This document shows positions 1 through 64,000 of a DNA stretch of 64,000 bases, in pieces. A program made the translations under genes and the position numbers. Below the pieces are notes generated by a model that was not told the origin of the DNA, did no database searches, and was given only the letters and a program-made list of their open reading frames with translations. Origin of the DNA: an uncultured Chloroflexia bacterium (GTDB taxonomy: Bacteria; Chloroflexota; Anaerolineae; JAAYZQ01); contig CAVOXA010000005.1 of the NCBI GenBank assembly GCA_963700285.1, positions 192,001-256,000 on the forward strand, written 5' to 3'. Position 1 is the stretch's first letter, and each line of letters begins with the position of its first letter.

Positions 1-52
1 GGGCGAAAACCTTGGGGTTGATAGTGGGCTTCAGTTCTGCTTCGAAAGCCCT
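1..52 (-). mobile_element. Terminal sequence of a putative IS element (inverted copy of 62645-62696); the rest would lie left of the window
   Basis: Reverse complement of 1-52 matches 62645-62696 at 51/52 nt; identity stops abruptly at 52/62645; internal GGGCTT...AAGCCC stem. Confidence 0.75.
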
Positions 53-64
53 CCATACTGGTTC

Positions 65-93
65 TTGCATATGCTGTGAAAAGCGGGTATAAT
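65..93 (+). promoter_or_regulatory. sigma70-type promoter TTGCAT-N17-TATAAT
   Basis: -35 at 65-70, 17-nt spacer, perfect -10 at 88-93, upstream of the HdeD-family gene. Confidence 0.75.
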
Positions 94-199: not shown

Positions 200-739
200 A
201 TGTCTGCTGCAAGTGTCGCGGAAAAAGAGACCCGCCGGGTCCCATGGTGGGTGATTCTCATCGAAGGGATCGCCCTCGTAATTCTTGGATTGCTGTGGCT
301 GGCCAACCCCGCGGCGACCACGGTCGTCTTTATCTTTATGCTGGGCATCTACTGGCTTGTCGCCGGTATATTCAAGATCATCAGTATCTTTCTCGACCAC
401 TCCATGTGGGGCTGGAAGCTTTTTGCCGGCATCATTGGCATTATCGCCGGCATCCTCATCATCCAGCACCCACTTTGGAGTTCGGTCCTCGTCAGCGCCA
501 CGCTGATCATCATCCTGGGTATCCAAGGACTCGTCTTTGGCGCCATCGGCGTCTACCAGGCATTCAAGGGAGCCGGCTGGGGCACGGGGATCCTGGGCGC
601 TATCAGCATCGTCTTTGGCCTCTACCTCCTGTTCAACATCGGGAAAGCAACGTTCGTACTGCCGTGGGTGCTGGGCCTCCTGGCCCTGGTGGGCGGCATC
701 GTCGTCATTGTGCTCGCCTTCCGGCAGAGGTCAGAGTAA
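200..739 (+). CDS. HdeD/DUF308 family membrane protein
   Basis: AAGGAG RBS before ATG 200; WWxxLIEGIxxxILG...P start and about 6 TM helices typical of DUF308. Confidence 0.85.
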   Translation: MSAASVAEKETRRVPWWVILIEGIALVILGLLWLANPAATTVVFIFMLGIYWLVAGIFKIISIFLDHSMWGWKLFAGIIGIIAGILIIQHPLWSSVLVSATLIIILGIQGLVFGAIGVYQAFKGAGWGTGILGAISIVFGLYLLFNIGKATFVLPWVLGLLALVGGIVVIVLAFRQRSE

Positions 740-57826: not shown

Positions 57827-58621
57827 TTATCTCGCTTCGACCCGAGGGATGCTATGCCTTTGAACCATTCCATGAAACGTACCAGGCGATCGATCGCCTG
57901 GTTGACGATCCGCTCGCCACGCTCGGCCGATGCCAGCAGTGGATCGGAGAGGCTGCCGAGAGGGAGGCGTGATGTCGTCCATGTCGACGGCAAAGCGCAC
58001 TTCGCAGCCCTCAAATCTGATGCCCGACAGCCCGCTGGGCTCACGGCCGAAAAAGTCCGCCGTGCCACAATTTTCTGCCAGATCCAGATCTACCGTGCCG
58101 GGAAACAGGTACGTCCAGAGGGAGCCCATCGGTTCGCCTCCATGCCCCATCTTGGCCTCGCCATATAGCTCCTTGGTCAATTCCTGCGTCAAGCCCATGC
58201 CGAGAGGCGAGACAATGGGAACCAGGAGGCCCCGGTCACGGCGGAGCTTTCGAATCAGGTGGCCCAGCGTGGGTTCGTTGCCTTTGTGTCCGTTGAGGAG
58301 TACGATATGCTCAAAGCCCTGGTCCATCAGGCAGTTGAGTACGTCCTGCACAACGTGAAAGAGGGTCTCACTCTGCAGGGTAACGGTGCCGGGAAACTTG
58401 CGAAAATACTCGGAATAGCCAAAGGGTAGGCAGGGAACCACCACGTCGCCGCTTTGACGGGCGGTTCGTACCGCTACTTCTTCAGCGATCAAATAGTCGC
58501 CCGTCGCAGCGTGGGGGCCATGCTCCTCGGTGGAGCCCAACGGGAAAATGGCCGCCGCTCCCCGGCCTATCGCTGCATCCACCTGCCGCCATGACATTTC
58601 TGCCGTACGTACTTGCTCCAT
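57827..58621 (-). CDS. Creatininase family amidohydrolase, C-terminal frameshifts
   Basis: PLGSTEEHGPH...D, FPGT, NGHKGN, HGG.P, A.AERG. Confidence 0.88.
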   Translation of the reverse strand: MEQVRTAEMSWRQVDAAIGRGAAAIFPLGSTEEHGPHAATGDYLIAEEVAVRTARQSGDVVVPCLPFGYSEYFRKFPGTVTLQSETLFHVVQDVLNCLMDQGFEHIVLLNGHKGNEPTLGHLIRKLRRDRGLLVPIVSPLGMGLTQELTKELYGEAKMGHGGEPMGSLWTYLFPGTVDLDLAENCGTADFFGREPSGLSGIRFEGCEVRFAVDMDDITPPSRQPLRSTAGIGRAWRADRQPGDRSPGTFHGMVQRHSIPRVEAR

Positions 58622-58769: not shown

Positions 58770-59693
58770 TCAACGCCTGAGATGTGGATCCAGCGCGTCC
58801 CGCAGGCCATCCCCCATCAGGTTGAAACTCAGGGTGACCAATAGAATGGCCAAACCAGGGAAGACGATCAGCAAAGGAGCGCTGGTGAAAAAGTCGCGGG
58901 CAGTGGAAAGCATCGCGCCCCACTCTGGAGTCGGAGGCTGGGGGCCCAGGCCCAGAAAACTGAGGCTGGCCGCGCTGAGGATAGCCGTTGCCAGGCGCAT
59001 GGTAGCGGCCACGATGAGCGGCGGCACGATATTAGGGCCGATATGGCGGGAAACGATGCGGAGATTGGCCGCGCCCAAGGACCTGGCAGAGAGGATGTAA
59101 TCCTGGCCTCTGATCGACAGCGTAGAACTGCGTGCAATGCGGGCAAAGTCCGGGATAGAAGCGATGCCCACAGCGATGATGACGTTCAGGGTTCCGACTC
59201 CCAGGGCGGCGATAATGCCAATTGCCAGCAGAAAACCGGGCATAGCCATCAGAACGTCGACGAACCTCGAAATCAGCGTGTCTGTAGGCCCGCCATAGAA
59301 ACCAGCCAGCAAGCCAAGGGCTGTACCGGTGAACAGGGCCAGGCCCACAGCCCCCATGGTGATCATCAGCGTGATGCGGGCGCCGATGATGATGCGCGAG
59401 AACACGTCGCGGCCCAGTTCGTCTGTGCCCAGCCAGTGAGCGGCTGATGGACCCTGAAGCCGGTTTGCCAGGTCAATGGCGGCTGGATCGTAAGGCGCGA
59501 GGTAGGGGGCCAGCAGTGCCGTCAGGAAAAAGAGGACGATGACGACCATCCCCACAACGGCTGCCCGATGGTGCAAAAACTGGCGGGCAACCATCCGCAG
59601 GTAGGACTCGCTTCTGGCTGCAGGGCCAAAGCCATTGCTATTCGAGGTTAGATCCGATGCGTGGCTCGCCTCCATGCGCGCTCGGTCAGTCAT
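58770..59693 (-). CDS. Peptide/nickel ABC permease (DppC-like)
   Basis: HWLGTDELGRD, SLSFLGLG.QPP.PEWG, GDGLRDALDP. Confidence 0.92.
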   Translation of the reverse strand: MTDRARMEASHASDLTSNSNGFGPAARSESYLRMVARQFLHHRAAVVGMVVIVLFFLTALLAPYLAPYDPAAIDLANRLQGPSAAHWLGTDELGRDVFSRIIIGARITLMITMGAVGLALFTGTALGLLAGFYGGPTDTLISRFVDVLMAMPGFLLAIGIIAALGVGTLNVIIAVGIASIPDFARIARSSTLSIRGQDYILSARSLGAANLRIVSRHIGPNIVPPLIVAATMRLATAILSAASLSFLGLGPQPPTPEWGAMLSTARDFFTSAPLLIVFPGLAILLVTLSFNLMGDGLRDALDPHLRR

Positions 59694-60605
59694 AGCGGAT
59701 CCGGGATCCAGGTAGGCGTAACCCAGATCGACAAGCAGATTGACCAGTACAAAGGACACTGCAAGGACCATGATGGTGCCCTGGACCACCGGAAAATCGC
59801 GCGCTTTGATGCCGTCGACCAAGAGTCTGCCCAGACCCTGCCGGGTGAAGACGGTCTCGGTGACGACTGCACCGCCGAGAAGGTAGCCGAATCGCAGGCC
59901 GATGACGGTGATAATGGGAATCAGTGCGTTCTTCAGGGCATGACGCAGGAGTATCACCCGCTCATTCAGCCCCTTGGCTTGCGCCGTCCGCATATAGTCC
60001 TGCCGGATGACCTCGAGCAGGCTGGAGCGGGTCATGCGGGCAATGATGGCCGCCGAGGCCGCGCCCAGGGCCAGCGCCGGCAACACCAGTGCCTTCAGAC
60101 TACCGGCTCCTCCTGTAGGAAACCAGCGCAGACGCACGGAAAAGAAAAAGATGAGCATCAAACCCAACCAGAAGATGGGGGTGGAAACGCCCAGGAGCGA
60201 GAGAATCATCGTGGCGTGGTCAAGCAGCGAATATTGCCGCTTGGCGGAGATGATGCCGATCACCAGCCCCAAGAGCGTAGCGATGAGCATGGCGGCCAAT
60301 GCCAGCTCGGCCGTCAGTGCCACCCGGCTGAGGATCTCCTCGCTCACAGGACGCCGGGTGACGATAGAGCGGCCTAGGTCGCCCCGCAGAACCCGGCCGA
60401 GCCAAATGCCGTATTGAACGTAGAGGGGTTTGTCCAGTCCGAACTTGGCTTTGATGTTCTCAATGTCCTCTTGCGTAGCATCTTCTCCAGCTAGCGTGGA
60501 GGCCGCGTCGCCGGGTGCGATCTGCAACAGGGCGAAAACAACGAGCGACACGGCCAGCATCACCGGGATGATTTGCAACAACCGGCGTATGAGATATCTC
60601 GTCAC
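59686..60605 (-). CDS. Peptide/nickel ABC permease (DppB-like); 1-nt deletion near the stop
   Basis: GLDKPL..QY, GDLG.S, RMTRSS, HALKNA, ETVF; expected LDPRIRY* ending is one C short. Confidence 0.9.
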
Positions 60606-60718: not shown

Positions 60719-62365
60719 CTACTTGGTGGCTCCGTAGATGACTACGTTCCCGGTGGGCAGGAGCGTATAGCCGGAAACATCCTTGTTGGCAGCCATGACG
60801 TTCTGTTGGACGAAAACCCATACAAAGGGAGCATCATCCCAGATGAGTTCTTGAGCATCGGCATAGAACTTGGCCCGTTCATCCAGATCGAAGGAGGTAC
60901 GGCCCTGGGCCAAGAGCTCGTCAACCTCTGGATTGCAGTAGCCGGAGCGCTGAGCCGCTTCCATGATGGCTGCTTCGCAGTTGAAGAGGCGGTACAGGTG
61001 ATAGTCCAGATACGAACTGGTCCGGATCTGCTGCGTGGTCCAACCAGCCATGTCGTCCGGGTGCTTTTTGAGATTCTCGACCAGGCCCGCCTGATCCACC
61101 TTGTGGAGGTTGATAGTGATACCGAGGGCCTGCCAGTAGGCTTGCAGCGCCTGCGTCACCTGTTCATCACCGGCCCAGCGACCGCTGACGTAGAAAAGAT
61201 CCCCCTCAAAGCCGTCCGGATAGCCAGCGTCCGCCAGGAGCTGCTTGGCTTTCTCAGGATTGTAGGCGTAGGGTTCCAGCTCCACTGAGCCCCAGACCCC
61301 CGGTGGGCCGGACGAGTCCGCGACACGACCGACTCCCCGCATGATCTCGTTGATGATCGAAACCTTGTCCACGGCATAGTTCATGGCCTGCCGCACCTCT
61401 TTGCTGTCAAAGGGCGGCTTTGTCTGGCGCATCTCAGAGGTAACCTGGCTCAGTGAGTCATTCTTCACAACGTTTATGTTGGGGTCGCCCTCCAGACTCT
61501 GCAGGTCCTCTGGCGAGACGTTCGCGGCCAGGTCCGCTTCCCCGGTCTGCAGCATGGCCGTACGAACCGCTGCCTCAGGCACTGGCCGGTAGATCACTGT
61601 GTCCAGCTCCAGCGCCCCCCGCCAGTAGTCAGGGTTGGCCTCGTAGGTGATGTGATCGTTCGGCACCCATTCCACAAACCTAAAGGGACCGGTGCCCACT
61701 GGTTGTCGCGCGAAATCCTCAAAACCCATCTCCTCCAGGGCGGTGGGGCTGACAATGAAGGCGGAACGGTCCATGAGCAGGAATGGGAGGTCGGGGAACG
61801 GCCCGTCGGTCACGATCTGCACCGTCAGCGGATCGACGACGTTGATCTCCTTGATGACCGTGTAGGCTGAGCGTCGATTGGCGCCTACATCGGGGTCTAG
61901 GATGTACTCCAGTGTGGTCTTGACGGCGTTGGCATCAAAGGGGGTGCCGTCGTGGAAGGTGACGCCCTCGCGCAGGTTGAAGGTCCAGGTTACCTGATCG
62001 TCGCCGATCTCCCACGAAGTCGCCAGACCTCGCTCTGGATCGGGGACCATTTTCTCGTCATGGCCCACCAGCGGGTCATAGAGCAGGTAATCGAGATGGC
62101 CCGGTGGGCCGGTGGAAGTCGGTGGGTAGAGCCCGGCGGGCTCGGTGCCATCGACCAGCACGAGGCTCGTCTCCTCTTCTGTGGCTGGCACCTCGGTCGG
62201 CTCTGGGGCTGCGACCTCGGTAGCGGGCGCCGCGACCTCCTCAGTGGGCGCAGTCGTGGGCGCAGCGGTGGGCTCTGCGGGGGCTGACGCTGGCCCGCAA
62301 GCGGCCACCGCCAAGGCAAGAACCAACAGGAGCGATACCAATGGTAATACTCGGAAGCGACTCAT
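60719..62365 (-). CDS. Peptide-type (family 5) ABC substrate-binding lipoprotein
   Basis: Lipobox VAAC, PT-rich linker, LREGVTFHDG, PVGTGPF, VRQAMNYA. Confidence 0.93.
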   Translation of the reverse strand: MSRFRVLPLVSLLLVLALAVAACGPASAPAEPTAAPTTAPTEEVAAPATEVAAPEPTEVPATEEETSLVLVDGTEPAGLYPPTSTGPPGHLDYLLYDPLVGHDEKMVPDPERGLATSWEIGDDQVTWTFNLREGVTFHDGTPFDANAVKTTLEYILDPDVGANRRSAYTVIKEINVVDPLTVQIVTDGPFPDLPFLLMDRSAFIVSPTALEEMGFEDFARQPVGTGPFRFVEWVPNDHITYEANPDYWRGALELDTVIYRPVPEAAVRTAMLQTGEADLAANVSPEDLQSLEGDPNINVVKNDSLSQVTSEMRQTKPPFDSKEVRQAMNYAVDKVSIINEIMRGVGRVADSSGPPGVWGSVELEPYAYNPEKAKQLLADAGYPDGFEGDLFYVSGRWAGDEQVTQALQAYWQALGITINLHKVDQAGLVENLKKHPDDMAGWTTQQIRTSSYLDYHLYRLFNCEAAIMEAAQRSGYCNPEVDELLAQGRTSFDLDERAKFYADAQELIWDDAPFVWVFVQQNVMAANKDVSGYTLLPTGNVVIYGATK

Positions 62366-62601: not shown

Positions 62602-62630
62602 ATTATAAACCAGTTCCCGACTATAGGCAA
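62602..62630 (-). promoter_or_regulatory. Promoter TTGCCT-N17-TATAAT of the ABC/creatininase operon
   Basis: AGGCAA at 62625-62630 and ATTATA at 62602-62607 on the + strand. Confidence 0.75.
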
Positions 62631-62774
62631 GTTCGAGGAATCCTAGGGCTTTCGAAGCAGAACTGAAGCCCACTATCAACCCAAAGGTTTTCGCCCGAGT
62701 CCCCTGGTCAGCCCACCGGGGCCGCCCTTTACCGCCAGACACAAGCGGGATGCCGAGACAGTCTGGCGCGACTC

Positions 62775-63385
62775 ATGGCAGCGTACGAGGGTTTAGTCCG
62801 TGCCGTCGTGCGGAAGCAGGTCTTGGGCGACCTGCCATTTGCCGAGGCCTTGCAGGCGGGTCGCATTGGCCTGTGGCACGCCATCCTGGGCTTTGATCCC
62901 GAGCAGAGAACGGCCTTTTCCACCTACGCCTGGACCTCCATTATGCACCAGGTCTGGCGAGAGGTCAAGCTTGCCGAGCGTGCCCCTTGTCGAGCCATGG
63001 AACATCTTGACCTCGACGAAGCCTCTTCTTCGGCGGCGGGAACGACAGATCCAGCCCAAGCCTGGGAAGCAGCTGCCATCCGCTCCGCCTTCTGGGATCT
63101 CCTTGCCCGGCTGCCAGAGCGATTGCGCGTCGTCGTCTTGGCTCGCTGTGAATTAACTGGGAAGTCCCAAGTCTTCTATTCTGCGATCGGCGCTGCGTTG
63201 AGCGTCAGCGGCGAGCGGGCGCGCCAACTGCATACCGAAAGCCTTGATCTGGCTGCGCCAATCCCTTCACTCCCAGCAGTTGCGTTCTCTCCTGGCCCGC
63301 TACACGTTTGCCGATTACAAGACCGTCGAGGCCGACACTCAGCGCTGGTTGCGGTGGCGAGGAGGCCGACATGGCCAACCGGACG
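62775..63385 (+). CDS. Compact sigma70-family protein (regions 2 and 4), frameshift near 63240; possibly a pseudogene, both ends uncertain
   Basis: LQAGRIGLWHAILGFDPEQRTAFSTYAW (region 2); LPERLR.V...R....IGAALSVSGERARQL (region 4.2); homology extends upstream (QAGCRDSLARL) with no start codon. Confidence 0.8.
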
Positions 63386-63460
63386 GCATGCTCCTCCATG
63401 CGGCTTCCCGCATGCGCTGTACCTCCATACAGCAGAGCTGCTACCAACCTACGGGCTCCG
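63371..63460 (+). pseudogene. N-terminal remnant of a downstream gene (MANRTACSS...), probably a transposase
   Basis: GGAGG RBS and ATG overlapping the sigma tail; transposase identity is from recollection of similar Chloroflexota gene pairs, no DDE motif visible. Confidence 0.4.
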
Positions 63461-63559: not shown

Positions 63560-64000
63560 GATCTATGACAACTGGCTACACGGACGATGGGCAGCGACAG
63601 GTCACGGTCGCATGTACCGATACCGTGATTCAACATGATCCCTGTACGGTTGAGACACAGATCGAGATTAGCGTGCAGAACTTACCTCTGACCGCGTACC
63701 TCAGCAACACCGGCCCTGTAGACCAGGGTGTTGCGGCGACCGTCTCCTTCAGCAATCAGGCAAACCAGAGCGATGCGTCCAGGATCGACAGCCAGGCCGG
63801 CTTCCACTATGCCTATGCCTGCGACGGCGGCAGCCTGGACTCGTGCTACATACGACAACAGCATCGCCTCTGAACGGTTCCACGATCTGCAGTCTTTGCC
63901 AGCGACGGCAGCACATTCGGTGCGCGCCCGCATCATCGACAAGGACGACGGCTACAGCGAGTACACCGCACGAGGTCGTCGTGACGGAGTGGCTCGCCAC
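63560..64000 (+). pseudogene. Fragment of a PKD/Ig-like repeat surface protein
   Basis: N.GPV.QG..ATVSF, AGF.Y.Y.CD, ARIIDKD.G.SEY motifs across frames. Confidence 0.55.

Follow-up and report, generated by a model that had tools for sequence, protein, structure and literature searches.

Two copies of a 52-bp sequence lie in inverted orientation near opposite ends of the window (the whole 64,000-nt stretch of DNA that was analysed, from an uncultured Anaerolineae bacterium), each beside a promoter pointing away from it, and one of them is followed by a gene for a compact sigma70-like protein. The locus raises the question of whether these are parts of a mobile element that carries a sigma factor of its own and inserts just upstream of housekeeping promoters and, if so, whether the sigma-like protein takes part in choosing the target or drives transcription of the element, the two roles considered in the initial annotation.

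The two copies in the window

Positions 62645–62696 and the reverse complement of 1–52 are identical at 51 of 52 positions, as first reported. The element itself ends at 62646 and at 51; the 52nd base of the repeat belongs to the flank. The features at the two sites are:

1..51, minus strand: left end of a copy with extensive deletions, continuing beyond the window start; terminal inverted repeat 35–51
65..93, plus strand: target promoter 1; -35 TTGCAT (65–70), 17 nt, -10 TATAAT (88–93)
200..739, plus strand: host DUF308 gene downstream of promoter 1; Pfam PF03729, E 8.8e-21
60719..62365, minus strand: host family-5 solute-binding protein gene downstream of promoter 2; Pfam PF00496, E 1.4e-95
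62602..62630, minus strand: target promoter 2; -35 TTGCCT (62630–62625), 17 nt, -10 TATAAT (62607–62602)
62646..62695, plus strand: left end of the second copy; terminal inverted repeat 62646–62662
62701..63376, plus strand: sigma-like gene remnant; regions 2 and 4 and C-terminal helix
63378..63500, plus strand: transposase fragment, about codons 217–257; first catalytic Asp at 63382–63384

Promoter 1, upstream of the DUF308 membrane-protein gene, lies 13 nt from its element end; promoter 2 lies 15 nt from its own, and the solute-binding protein gene starts 236 nt after its -10 box. Both point outward. The two promoters (TTGCCT and TTGCAT, each with a 17-nt spacer) are those originally described, and the idea of a fixed offset holds, but the distances given then (14 and 12 nt) had been counted from one base further out. 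Nor are the copies the two ends of one element: a composite element spanning 1–52 to 62645 is ruled out, as both copies are left ends, each with its own outward promoter.

Both window copies are internally deleted relics of separate elements. The copy at 1..51, the more deleted of the two, aligns with nt 1–103 of intact elements and continues past the window start as small scraps of sigma and transposase sequence; no right end was found for it beyond the window. The second copy has the conserved subterminal ATCAACCC in its left end (62675–62682) and lacks element nt ~52–141 (the internal promoter, ribosome-binding site and sigma start codon), nt ~817–1460, and everything after ~1583, right end included. 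Its sigma remnant shares 84% identity with element nt 142–816 of an intact locus (L030), but its 5′ end is deleted and its frame is broken near 63232–63240; the break, near 63235, may reflect decay or an assembly error. The identification as a sigma70-like gene stands: the frame matches Pfam Sigma70_r2 above cut-off (E 1.2e-7) and Sigma70_r4 below it (E 0.0022), and the helix VSGERARQL is present. The gene after it is truncated, as first noted, and is a transposase fragment; the statement that it has no catalytic domain needs correction, since it retains the first catalytic Asp. The deletions at ~52–141 and ~817–1460 are common to the second window copy and a 97% identical copy on contig C1, so a non-autonomous derivative was likely moved in trans. 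Empty sites for both window promoters were sought in 5 relatives, and no orthologous intergenic region was found; that the two promoters existed before the insertions we infer from the behaviour of the family.

Three observations concern other parts of the window. Two ABC permeases are read as one fused frame (58770–60605) and a creatininase-like frame looks broken at its end (57827–58621), both named by eye from translations, which suggests indel errors in the assembly. After the element remnant, positions 63565–64000 hold fragmented frames resembling a repeat-rich extracellular protein, with no Pfam match.

A two-gene insertion sequence

With the 52-mer as query, BLASTN matched 8 further sites in the 7.05-Mb genome, and eight of the genome's related stretches are left ends of one element family. 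A simple REP-type repeat, which had been raised as a possible explanation, is ruled out: every copy is an element end. Profile scans collected 75 loci from genomes and, from metagenomes, the best 80 of 272. The sigma-like gene was present in 154/155 loci, and the same large transposase gene came next in 136 of the 144 sigma loci with at least 300 bp of downstream sequence; among the 8 without a transposase call, several have truncated sigma matches. Wherever both genes were called whole (93/93 loci) they overlap or abut. In the 80 loci with both ends, the median length is 2798 bp and terminal inverted repeats are ~17 bp, matching at 14 or more of 17 nt in 73. The left end carries the subterminal ATCAACCC, a housekeeping-type -10 and a ribosome-binding site. 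Just two long reading frames fill the 2.8 kb, and no gene for a TnsC-like ATPase, TniQ or Cas protein was found among them. The element is thus a ~2.8-kb two-gene insertion sequence, in which a compact SigA-derived gene overlaps a gene for a ~565-aa transposase.

Of 69 complete elements, 10 are flanked by a 5-bp target duplication (none of 4 bp or of at least 6 bp; 0.08 expected by chance) and 55 show none, for which chimeric assembly of repeats could be a reason. At 10 of 12 end-to-end junctions the gap is 5 nt. Re-use of a slot by an incoming copy would give this spacing, but a circle junction would have the same appearance; no end-to-end circle joint was seen in contigs of 4 of 24 listed public sequencing runs, among which small-share runs carry no weight.

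Insertion at a fixed offset from promoters

In the genome of the window (G000), 8/8 left ends are followed by an outward TTG-N3-N17-TANNNT motif at 12, 13, 14 (four ends) or 15 nt (two ends), a motif found at offsets 13–15 from a random position in this genome at a rate of 0.001. For the wider set, the matrix used to call ends had been trained solely on bases inside the element; it favours the main clade and missed some divergent ends. A score of at least 10 and 50 nt of flank left 114 left and 78 right flanks (one right flank dropped). In clade A, 85/101 left flanks have the strict motif at 13–15 nt (3, 73 and 9, that is, 73 at exactly 14 nt), compared with 1/68 right flanks. Among the 16 misses, 5 have another element end 5 nt away or a similar arrangement (L043, L125, L145, L146), and at several others TATAAT is in place behind a -35 that nearly matches. 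In clade B, separated by its repeat sequence after the data had been seen, the motif occurs in 9/10 right flanks and 3/13 left flanks. Genes point away from the element in 31/45 left flanks, 11/32 right flanks and 709/2000 random positions. The -10 bases at -11 and -7 are selected in the targets, while extended -10 TG is not enriched over host promoters (19/45 and 1/12 vs 343/758). These data show fixed-offset promoter targeting by a sigma-carrying insertion sequence, and the fixed offset at other copies, proposed at the outset as a means of refutation, was found both in this genome and elsewhere. An offset of ~14 nt together with a 5-bp duplication means that the DNA is cut 9 and 14 bp ahead of the -35 box.

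A lone element end in the same genome (contig C10, 1610015) has TTGCTT-17-TATAAT 14 nt away and is its ninth promoter-adjacent end. On the same contig near 774750 (L001:330–400), a promoter (TTGCCC, 17, TAGAAT) lies ~14 nt from internal transposase sequence, and the left part of this copy seems to have been deleted exactly at the junction. The end that is used varies by clade (L066–L099, L363–L383): the main clade uses the left, divergent clades mostly the right. Two divergent lineages of this set have offsets of 15–16, and two loci (L365, L382) have promoters at both ends.

Sigma-less relatives

A sister family of insertion sequences without the sigma gene served as a control; 70 of about 100 listed matches were used, giving 69 ends from the same class (33/401 genomes).

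Sigma-less sister copies: G000 contig C15, 140021–141936 (L214, L252); L241–L310; L194, L196, L210–L213

An outward promoter at offsets 0–29 was found at 0/69 of these ends. The ends (near GAGCTCTCTCGGAAAGTC) have instead a Shine-Dalgarno-like motif 8–14 nt away in 25/69 cases, with a peak of 15 at 10 nt, and no sigma-element end (0/192) has such a motif at that distance. The sister element inserts ~10 nt upstream of Shine-Dalgarno motifs, inside 5′ leaders. Fixed spacing from a gene-start signal is thus seen here too, so that targeting by transposases of this group is possible without a sigma factor. No relatives of the sister family were found in phages.

A second sigma-less lineage (L217, L221, L414–L419) has ends TGAGTATCTAACAGAAC; no such outward promoter was present in the 3 flanks examined, and one end lies 1 nt from an inward TATACT. 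A third, IS1182-like sigma-less clade (L229:1–372, L235:134–445, L237:465–500; ends GAGGGTTGG) is found bordering or within arrays of evenly spaced CRISPR-like repeats at two or more loci, and may possibly target repeats.

The transposase

In intact homologues the downstream gene, the nature of which had been put forward for checking, encodes a DDE transposase. Of 7998 candidates scored against the ~565-aa protein, 1405 were hits (clustering at 50% identity gave 807 clusters), and all 120 of the matches listed are 'hypothetical' or unnamed. The structural model (pLDDT 85.9) has its best match in Tn5 (Z 14.0, rmsd 4.7, 287 aligned); other transposases and integrases rank next, and the IS256-family ISCth4 scored Z 8.0 (rmsd 7.0, 216 aligned). 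Foldseek returned no match at E 0.001 or below, its top row being Tn5 (E 0.012), and a PDB sequence search with the transposase profile had 0 hits. The catalytic triad is conserved (D219 and D372 in 50/50 members, Glu in 49/50). The first sequence used for the fold and complex models, from L032, lacks the catalytic Glu through a small deletion; those from L030 and L038 keep it.

The initial annotation had compared the element with Mutator-like transposons, and the likeness is confined to behaviour. A Mutator assignment of the enzyme is ruled out by the consensus after D372 (AGFGY, without the His of the C/D(2)H signature sought after the second Asp), by the absence of matches to Mutator Pfam families in 50 members and by the structural match to Tn5. 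DDE_Tnp_1 matches 3/50 sigma-linked transposases (best E 0.0097), and against NF033551 (IS1182; cut-off 270 bits) they reach at best 10.5–10.8 bits (E 0.17–0.21). Their sigma-less relatives, which are homologous to them (hhalign 97.3%), match NF033551 at E 4e-8 to 1e-19, also below cut-off. In a quick tree, 19 sigma-linked transposases fall on one side of a branch and 20 sigma-less rows on the other (SH-aLRT 100), with long branches meeting in this tree. The transposase is a Tn5-fold DDE enzyme related to IS1182/IS5 that reaches no family model.

The sigma-like protein

The best PDB sequence matches of the sigma-like protein are SigA/RpoD (E 2.5e-32), and its model matches sigma factors (best Z 13.8, rmsd 2.8, 96 aligned). 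The ~230-aa protein aligns to Bacillus subtilis SigA 117–216 and 282–371, skipping 217–281 (region 3), and so comprises regions 2 and 4, joined by a linker that is variable and of low confidence in the model, plus an extra C-terminal helix of ~25 aa absent from host SigA. TIGR02937 is above cut-off in 4/4 intact proteins. Like the Group 1 factors SigA/RpoD, the protein keeps regions 2 and 4 and the C-terminal HP-S motif; unlike them, it lacks region 1.1, region 3 and the tryptophan pair of region 2.3, has the extra helix, and varies at the R584 position.

Residues are given here by the Escherichia coli numbers that we take to correspond to them, mapped through the host SigA alignment. In the passages cited from PMC2613000, R584 reads -31 and E585 reads -33, Q437 and T440 read -12, H455 and E458 read the extended -10, and Y430, W433 and W434 act in promoter opening. 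Among 132 element proteins, the equivalents of E585, R586, R588 and Q589 are kept in 121–124 (121–130 when Y430 is included), D403 is E or D in 129 and Q406 is Q in 130. The W433/W434 equivalents are lost in all 132, the Q437 equivalent is H or R, and region 2.2 has three near-invariant changes with respect to host SigA (E to A, N to R, I to W). The R584 position, kept in host SigA, is G in 84, R in 17, A in 15, H in 6 and K in 6.

Target sequence and the -35 helix

Host promoter-like sites number 758 at spacer 17 versus about 50 at other spacers, and 41–49% of them have TTGA in six genomes. Elements with G or A at the R584 position have TTGA in 4/59 targets, those with R, K or H in 22/32 (the count omits one frameshifted row, short proteins, boxes without TTG and elements with any other residue). 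The targets of G/A elements therefore depart firmly from the host promoter pool (binomial p 5e-9). In junctions gathered after the pattern had been seen, TTGAC was present in 12/13 R/K/H targets and 0/1 G targets. The contrast recurs within single hosts: in G716 an H element is at TTGACA and a G element at TTGCCT, and in G013 a K element is at TTGACA and two G elements at TTGTGT and TTGCGA. Such within-host contrasts are few, as pattern searches of long-contig genomes gave 0–2 matches each, several probably by chance.

The residue itself is a suggestive cause of the target base. The R584-equivalent column ranks first of 192 scanned, tied with a neighbour in the same helix (p 4.6e-4; ~0.09 when corrected for 192 columns). 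The residue class changes ~11 times on the tree, and in a tree-aware test with 8 independent pairs ~2.8 were for the association, 0.3 against and 4.9 without difference (sign test, median p 0.25; a second tree-aware test was similar); for C at -31 the pairs were 2.0 vs 1.5 (p 1). Independent pairs are too few, so the departure from the host pool is firm and the causal residue suggestive. Several R/H elements target TTGC sites (among them L035, L048, L056, L131, L381), and the strongest base shift is at -32, a position that the cited passages of PMC2613000 do not assign to R584.

A predicted sigma–transposase complex

Modelling of the sigma-like protein with the transposase gave a complex score of 0.64 (best of 3 controls 0.00), beyond a mark reached by 116/157 solved and 2/215 mismatched pairs. 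Contact agreement between runs was at least 86% and partner pLDDT at least 72. The predicted interface joins sigma 199–234 to transposase 408–423 and 457–490, so that the end of region 4 and the extra helix meet the insertion domain of the transposase, and both surfaces include conserved residues. None of the confident contacts with the transposase involves region 2. The model supports binding of the sigma-like protein to the transposase.

Proposed mechanism and alternatives

The suggestion that the protein is a target-selection module, which we infer and do not observe, gains support from the complex model, helix conservation, the host promoter comparison and the association of target with residue. 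That it is the target selector appears quite likely; we also consider it likely that the target is chosen by a domesticated sigma, with host core RNA polymerase as the probable and favoured scaffold. In this scheme, the -35 box would be read by region 4.2 and the -10 box by region 2. Since the linker is flexible and variable yet the 17-bp spacing is strict, the protein is likely to act while bound to host core polymerase, and since the tryptophan pair and region 3 are lost, the resulting complex is likely closed and non-initiating. The end of region 4 and the C-terminal helix would dock on the insertion domain of the transposase, and the staggered cuts would thereby fall 9 and 14 bp ahead of the -35 box. 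Because insertions there leave core promoter and gene intact, they likely cost the host little, and later copies would re-enter the same slot. The most detailed form of this proposal, in which a housekeeping sigma has been domesticated as a non-transcribing homing subunit that takes over host RNA polymerase, parks it on promoters, hands the upstream DNA to the transposase and is re-tuned by single changes in the -35 helix, seems somewhat more probable than its opposite.

Host SigA holoenzyme might instead steer the transposase, as proposed for TnGBS, with the sigma-like protein as an accessory (adaptor, activator or inhibitor) that reads no bases. The targets are ordinary host promoters with strict 17-bp spacing, TnGBS, ISLre2 and ISKra4 elements reach similar sites with no sigma reported in the sections cited (PMC3942029), the tree-aware residue test is not significant, and a protein–protein role fits the complex model equally well. 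Against this, G/A elements avoid the TTGA promoters that make up 41–49% of those used by host SigA, which keeps R584, while R/K/H elements do not, a contrast repeated within G716 and G013; the DNA-contacting helix residues are also conserved. This explanation we regard as unlikely. A little less likely again is selection by the sigma-like protein and transposase without RNA polymerase, with the transposase or the DNA determining how far apart the two domains sit. In its favour, the predicted interface takes in the end of region 4, which in primary sigmas we take to be a surface near the polymerase flap contact, and region 2.2 has its near-invariant changes; against this, region 2 is free of transposase contacts in the confident interface, the linker is variable and poorly predicted, the D403 and Q406 equivalents are kept, and the -10 bases -11 and -7 are selected.

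The protein could also be a working transcription factor that serves the promoter of the element itself, or a mere passenger, the observed positions being the survivors among insertions that did no harm. Both sigma domains are kept and left flanks are enriched for genes pointing away (31/45), but selection cannot yield 73/101 at one offset in a fixed orientation, the element's own promoter has a housekeeping-type -10, and the melting residues and region 3 are lost. This explanation is very improbable, and the initial annotation's alternative that the protein drives element transcription gained no support. Domestication of the sigma as target selector remains the preferred reading.

Relation to known elements

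The element resembles the IS1182/IS5/IS4 group (NF033551; Tn5, 1mm8) in its RNase H/DDE fold with a large insertion domain and D...D...E triad, its R-x3-E-x-R-N helix, and its short inverted repeats and duplication; it differs in having two genes, one for a sigma, in promoter-upstream targeting and in reaching no family model. Tn7 (TnsD/TnsE) and CRISPR-associated transposons encode a DNA-binding selector that directs insertion at a fixed distance and orientation into a safe site, and in the latter the selector is a domesticated host-type machine. The present element differs from both in lacking a TnsC-like ATPase, TniQ and Cas proteins; its selector would be a sigma factor and its targets are hundreds of promoters.

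Promoter-upstream insertion is already known from TnGBS integrative and conjugative elements, ISLre2 (p-MULT 3) and the ISKra4 group (p-MULT 4), as described by Guerillot et al. 2014 (PMC3942029). The p-MULT 3/4 elements insert at a fixed distance upstream of sigma-A promoters by means of Mutator-type transposases, one motif of which was proposed to touch the host initiation complex (PMC3942029). The present element shares the fixed distance upstream of housekeeping promoters but has a Tn5-fold transposase and a sigma-derived gene, and the sections cited mention no sigma encoded by those elements. A literature search, covering titles and abstract openings and few subscription journals, and leaving ISfinder aside, found no prior description of such an element; as far as it reached, the element-encoded sigma gene is new. 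For TnGBS, promoter homing through contact with the initiation complex was proposed and, in the sections cited, not shown (PMC3942029). Here a candidate targeting part is on the element itself, is small (about 230 aa) and has a predicted transposase interface, which makes the question directly testable, and natural variation at one residue goes with the target sequence. If the proposal is true, sigma factors would join the machines turned into target selectors by mobile elements. The element would then amount to a compact site-selective integrase of two proteins, targeted and programmable at the protein level, with a preference that might be tuned. It would also offer a natural model of promoter finding by TnGBS-type elements, and its insertions a natural promoter map for uncultured Anaerolineae.

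Distribution

The family is sparse, being present in 29/401 genomes of the class and 5/401 of the phylum, and no relatives of the transposase were found in viral contigs. Six elements (L030, L033, L064, L067, L087, L089) are on contigs of 2.5–5.5 kb in genomes labelled as other phyla, and may be mis-binned Anaerolineae repeats or true transfers. In one complete chromosome (G784 C1), two facing left ends (L311 and L316, at 1682326 and 1688326) lie 6 kb apart.
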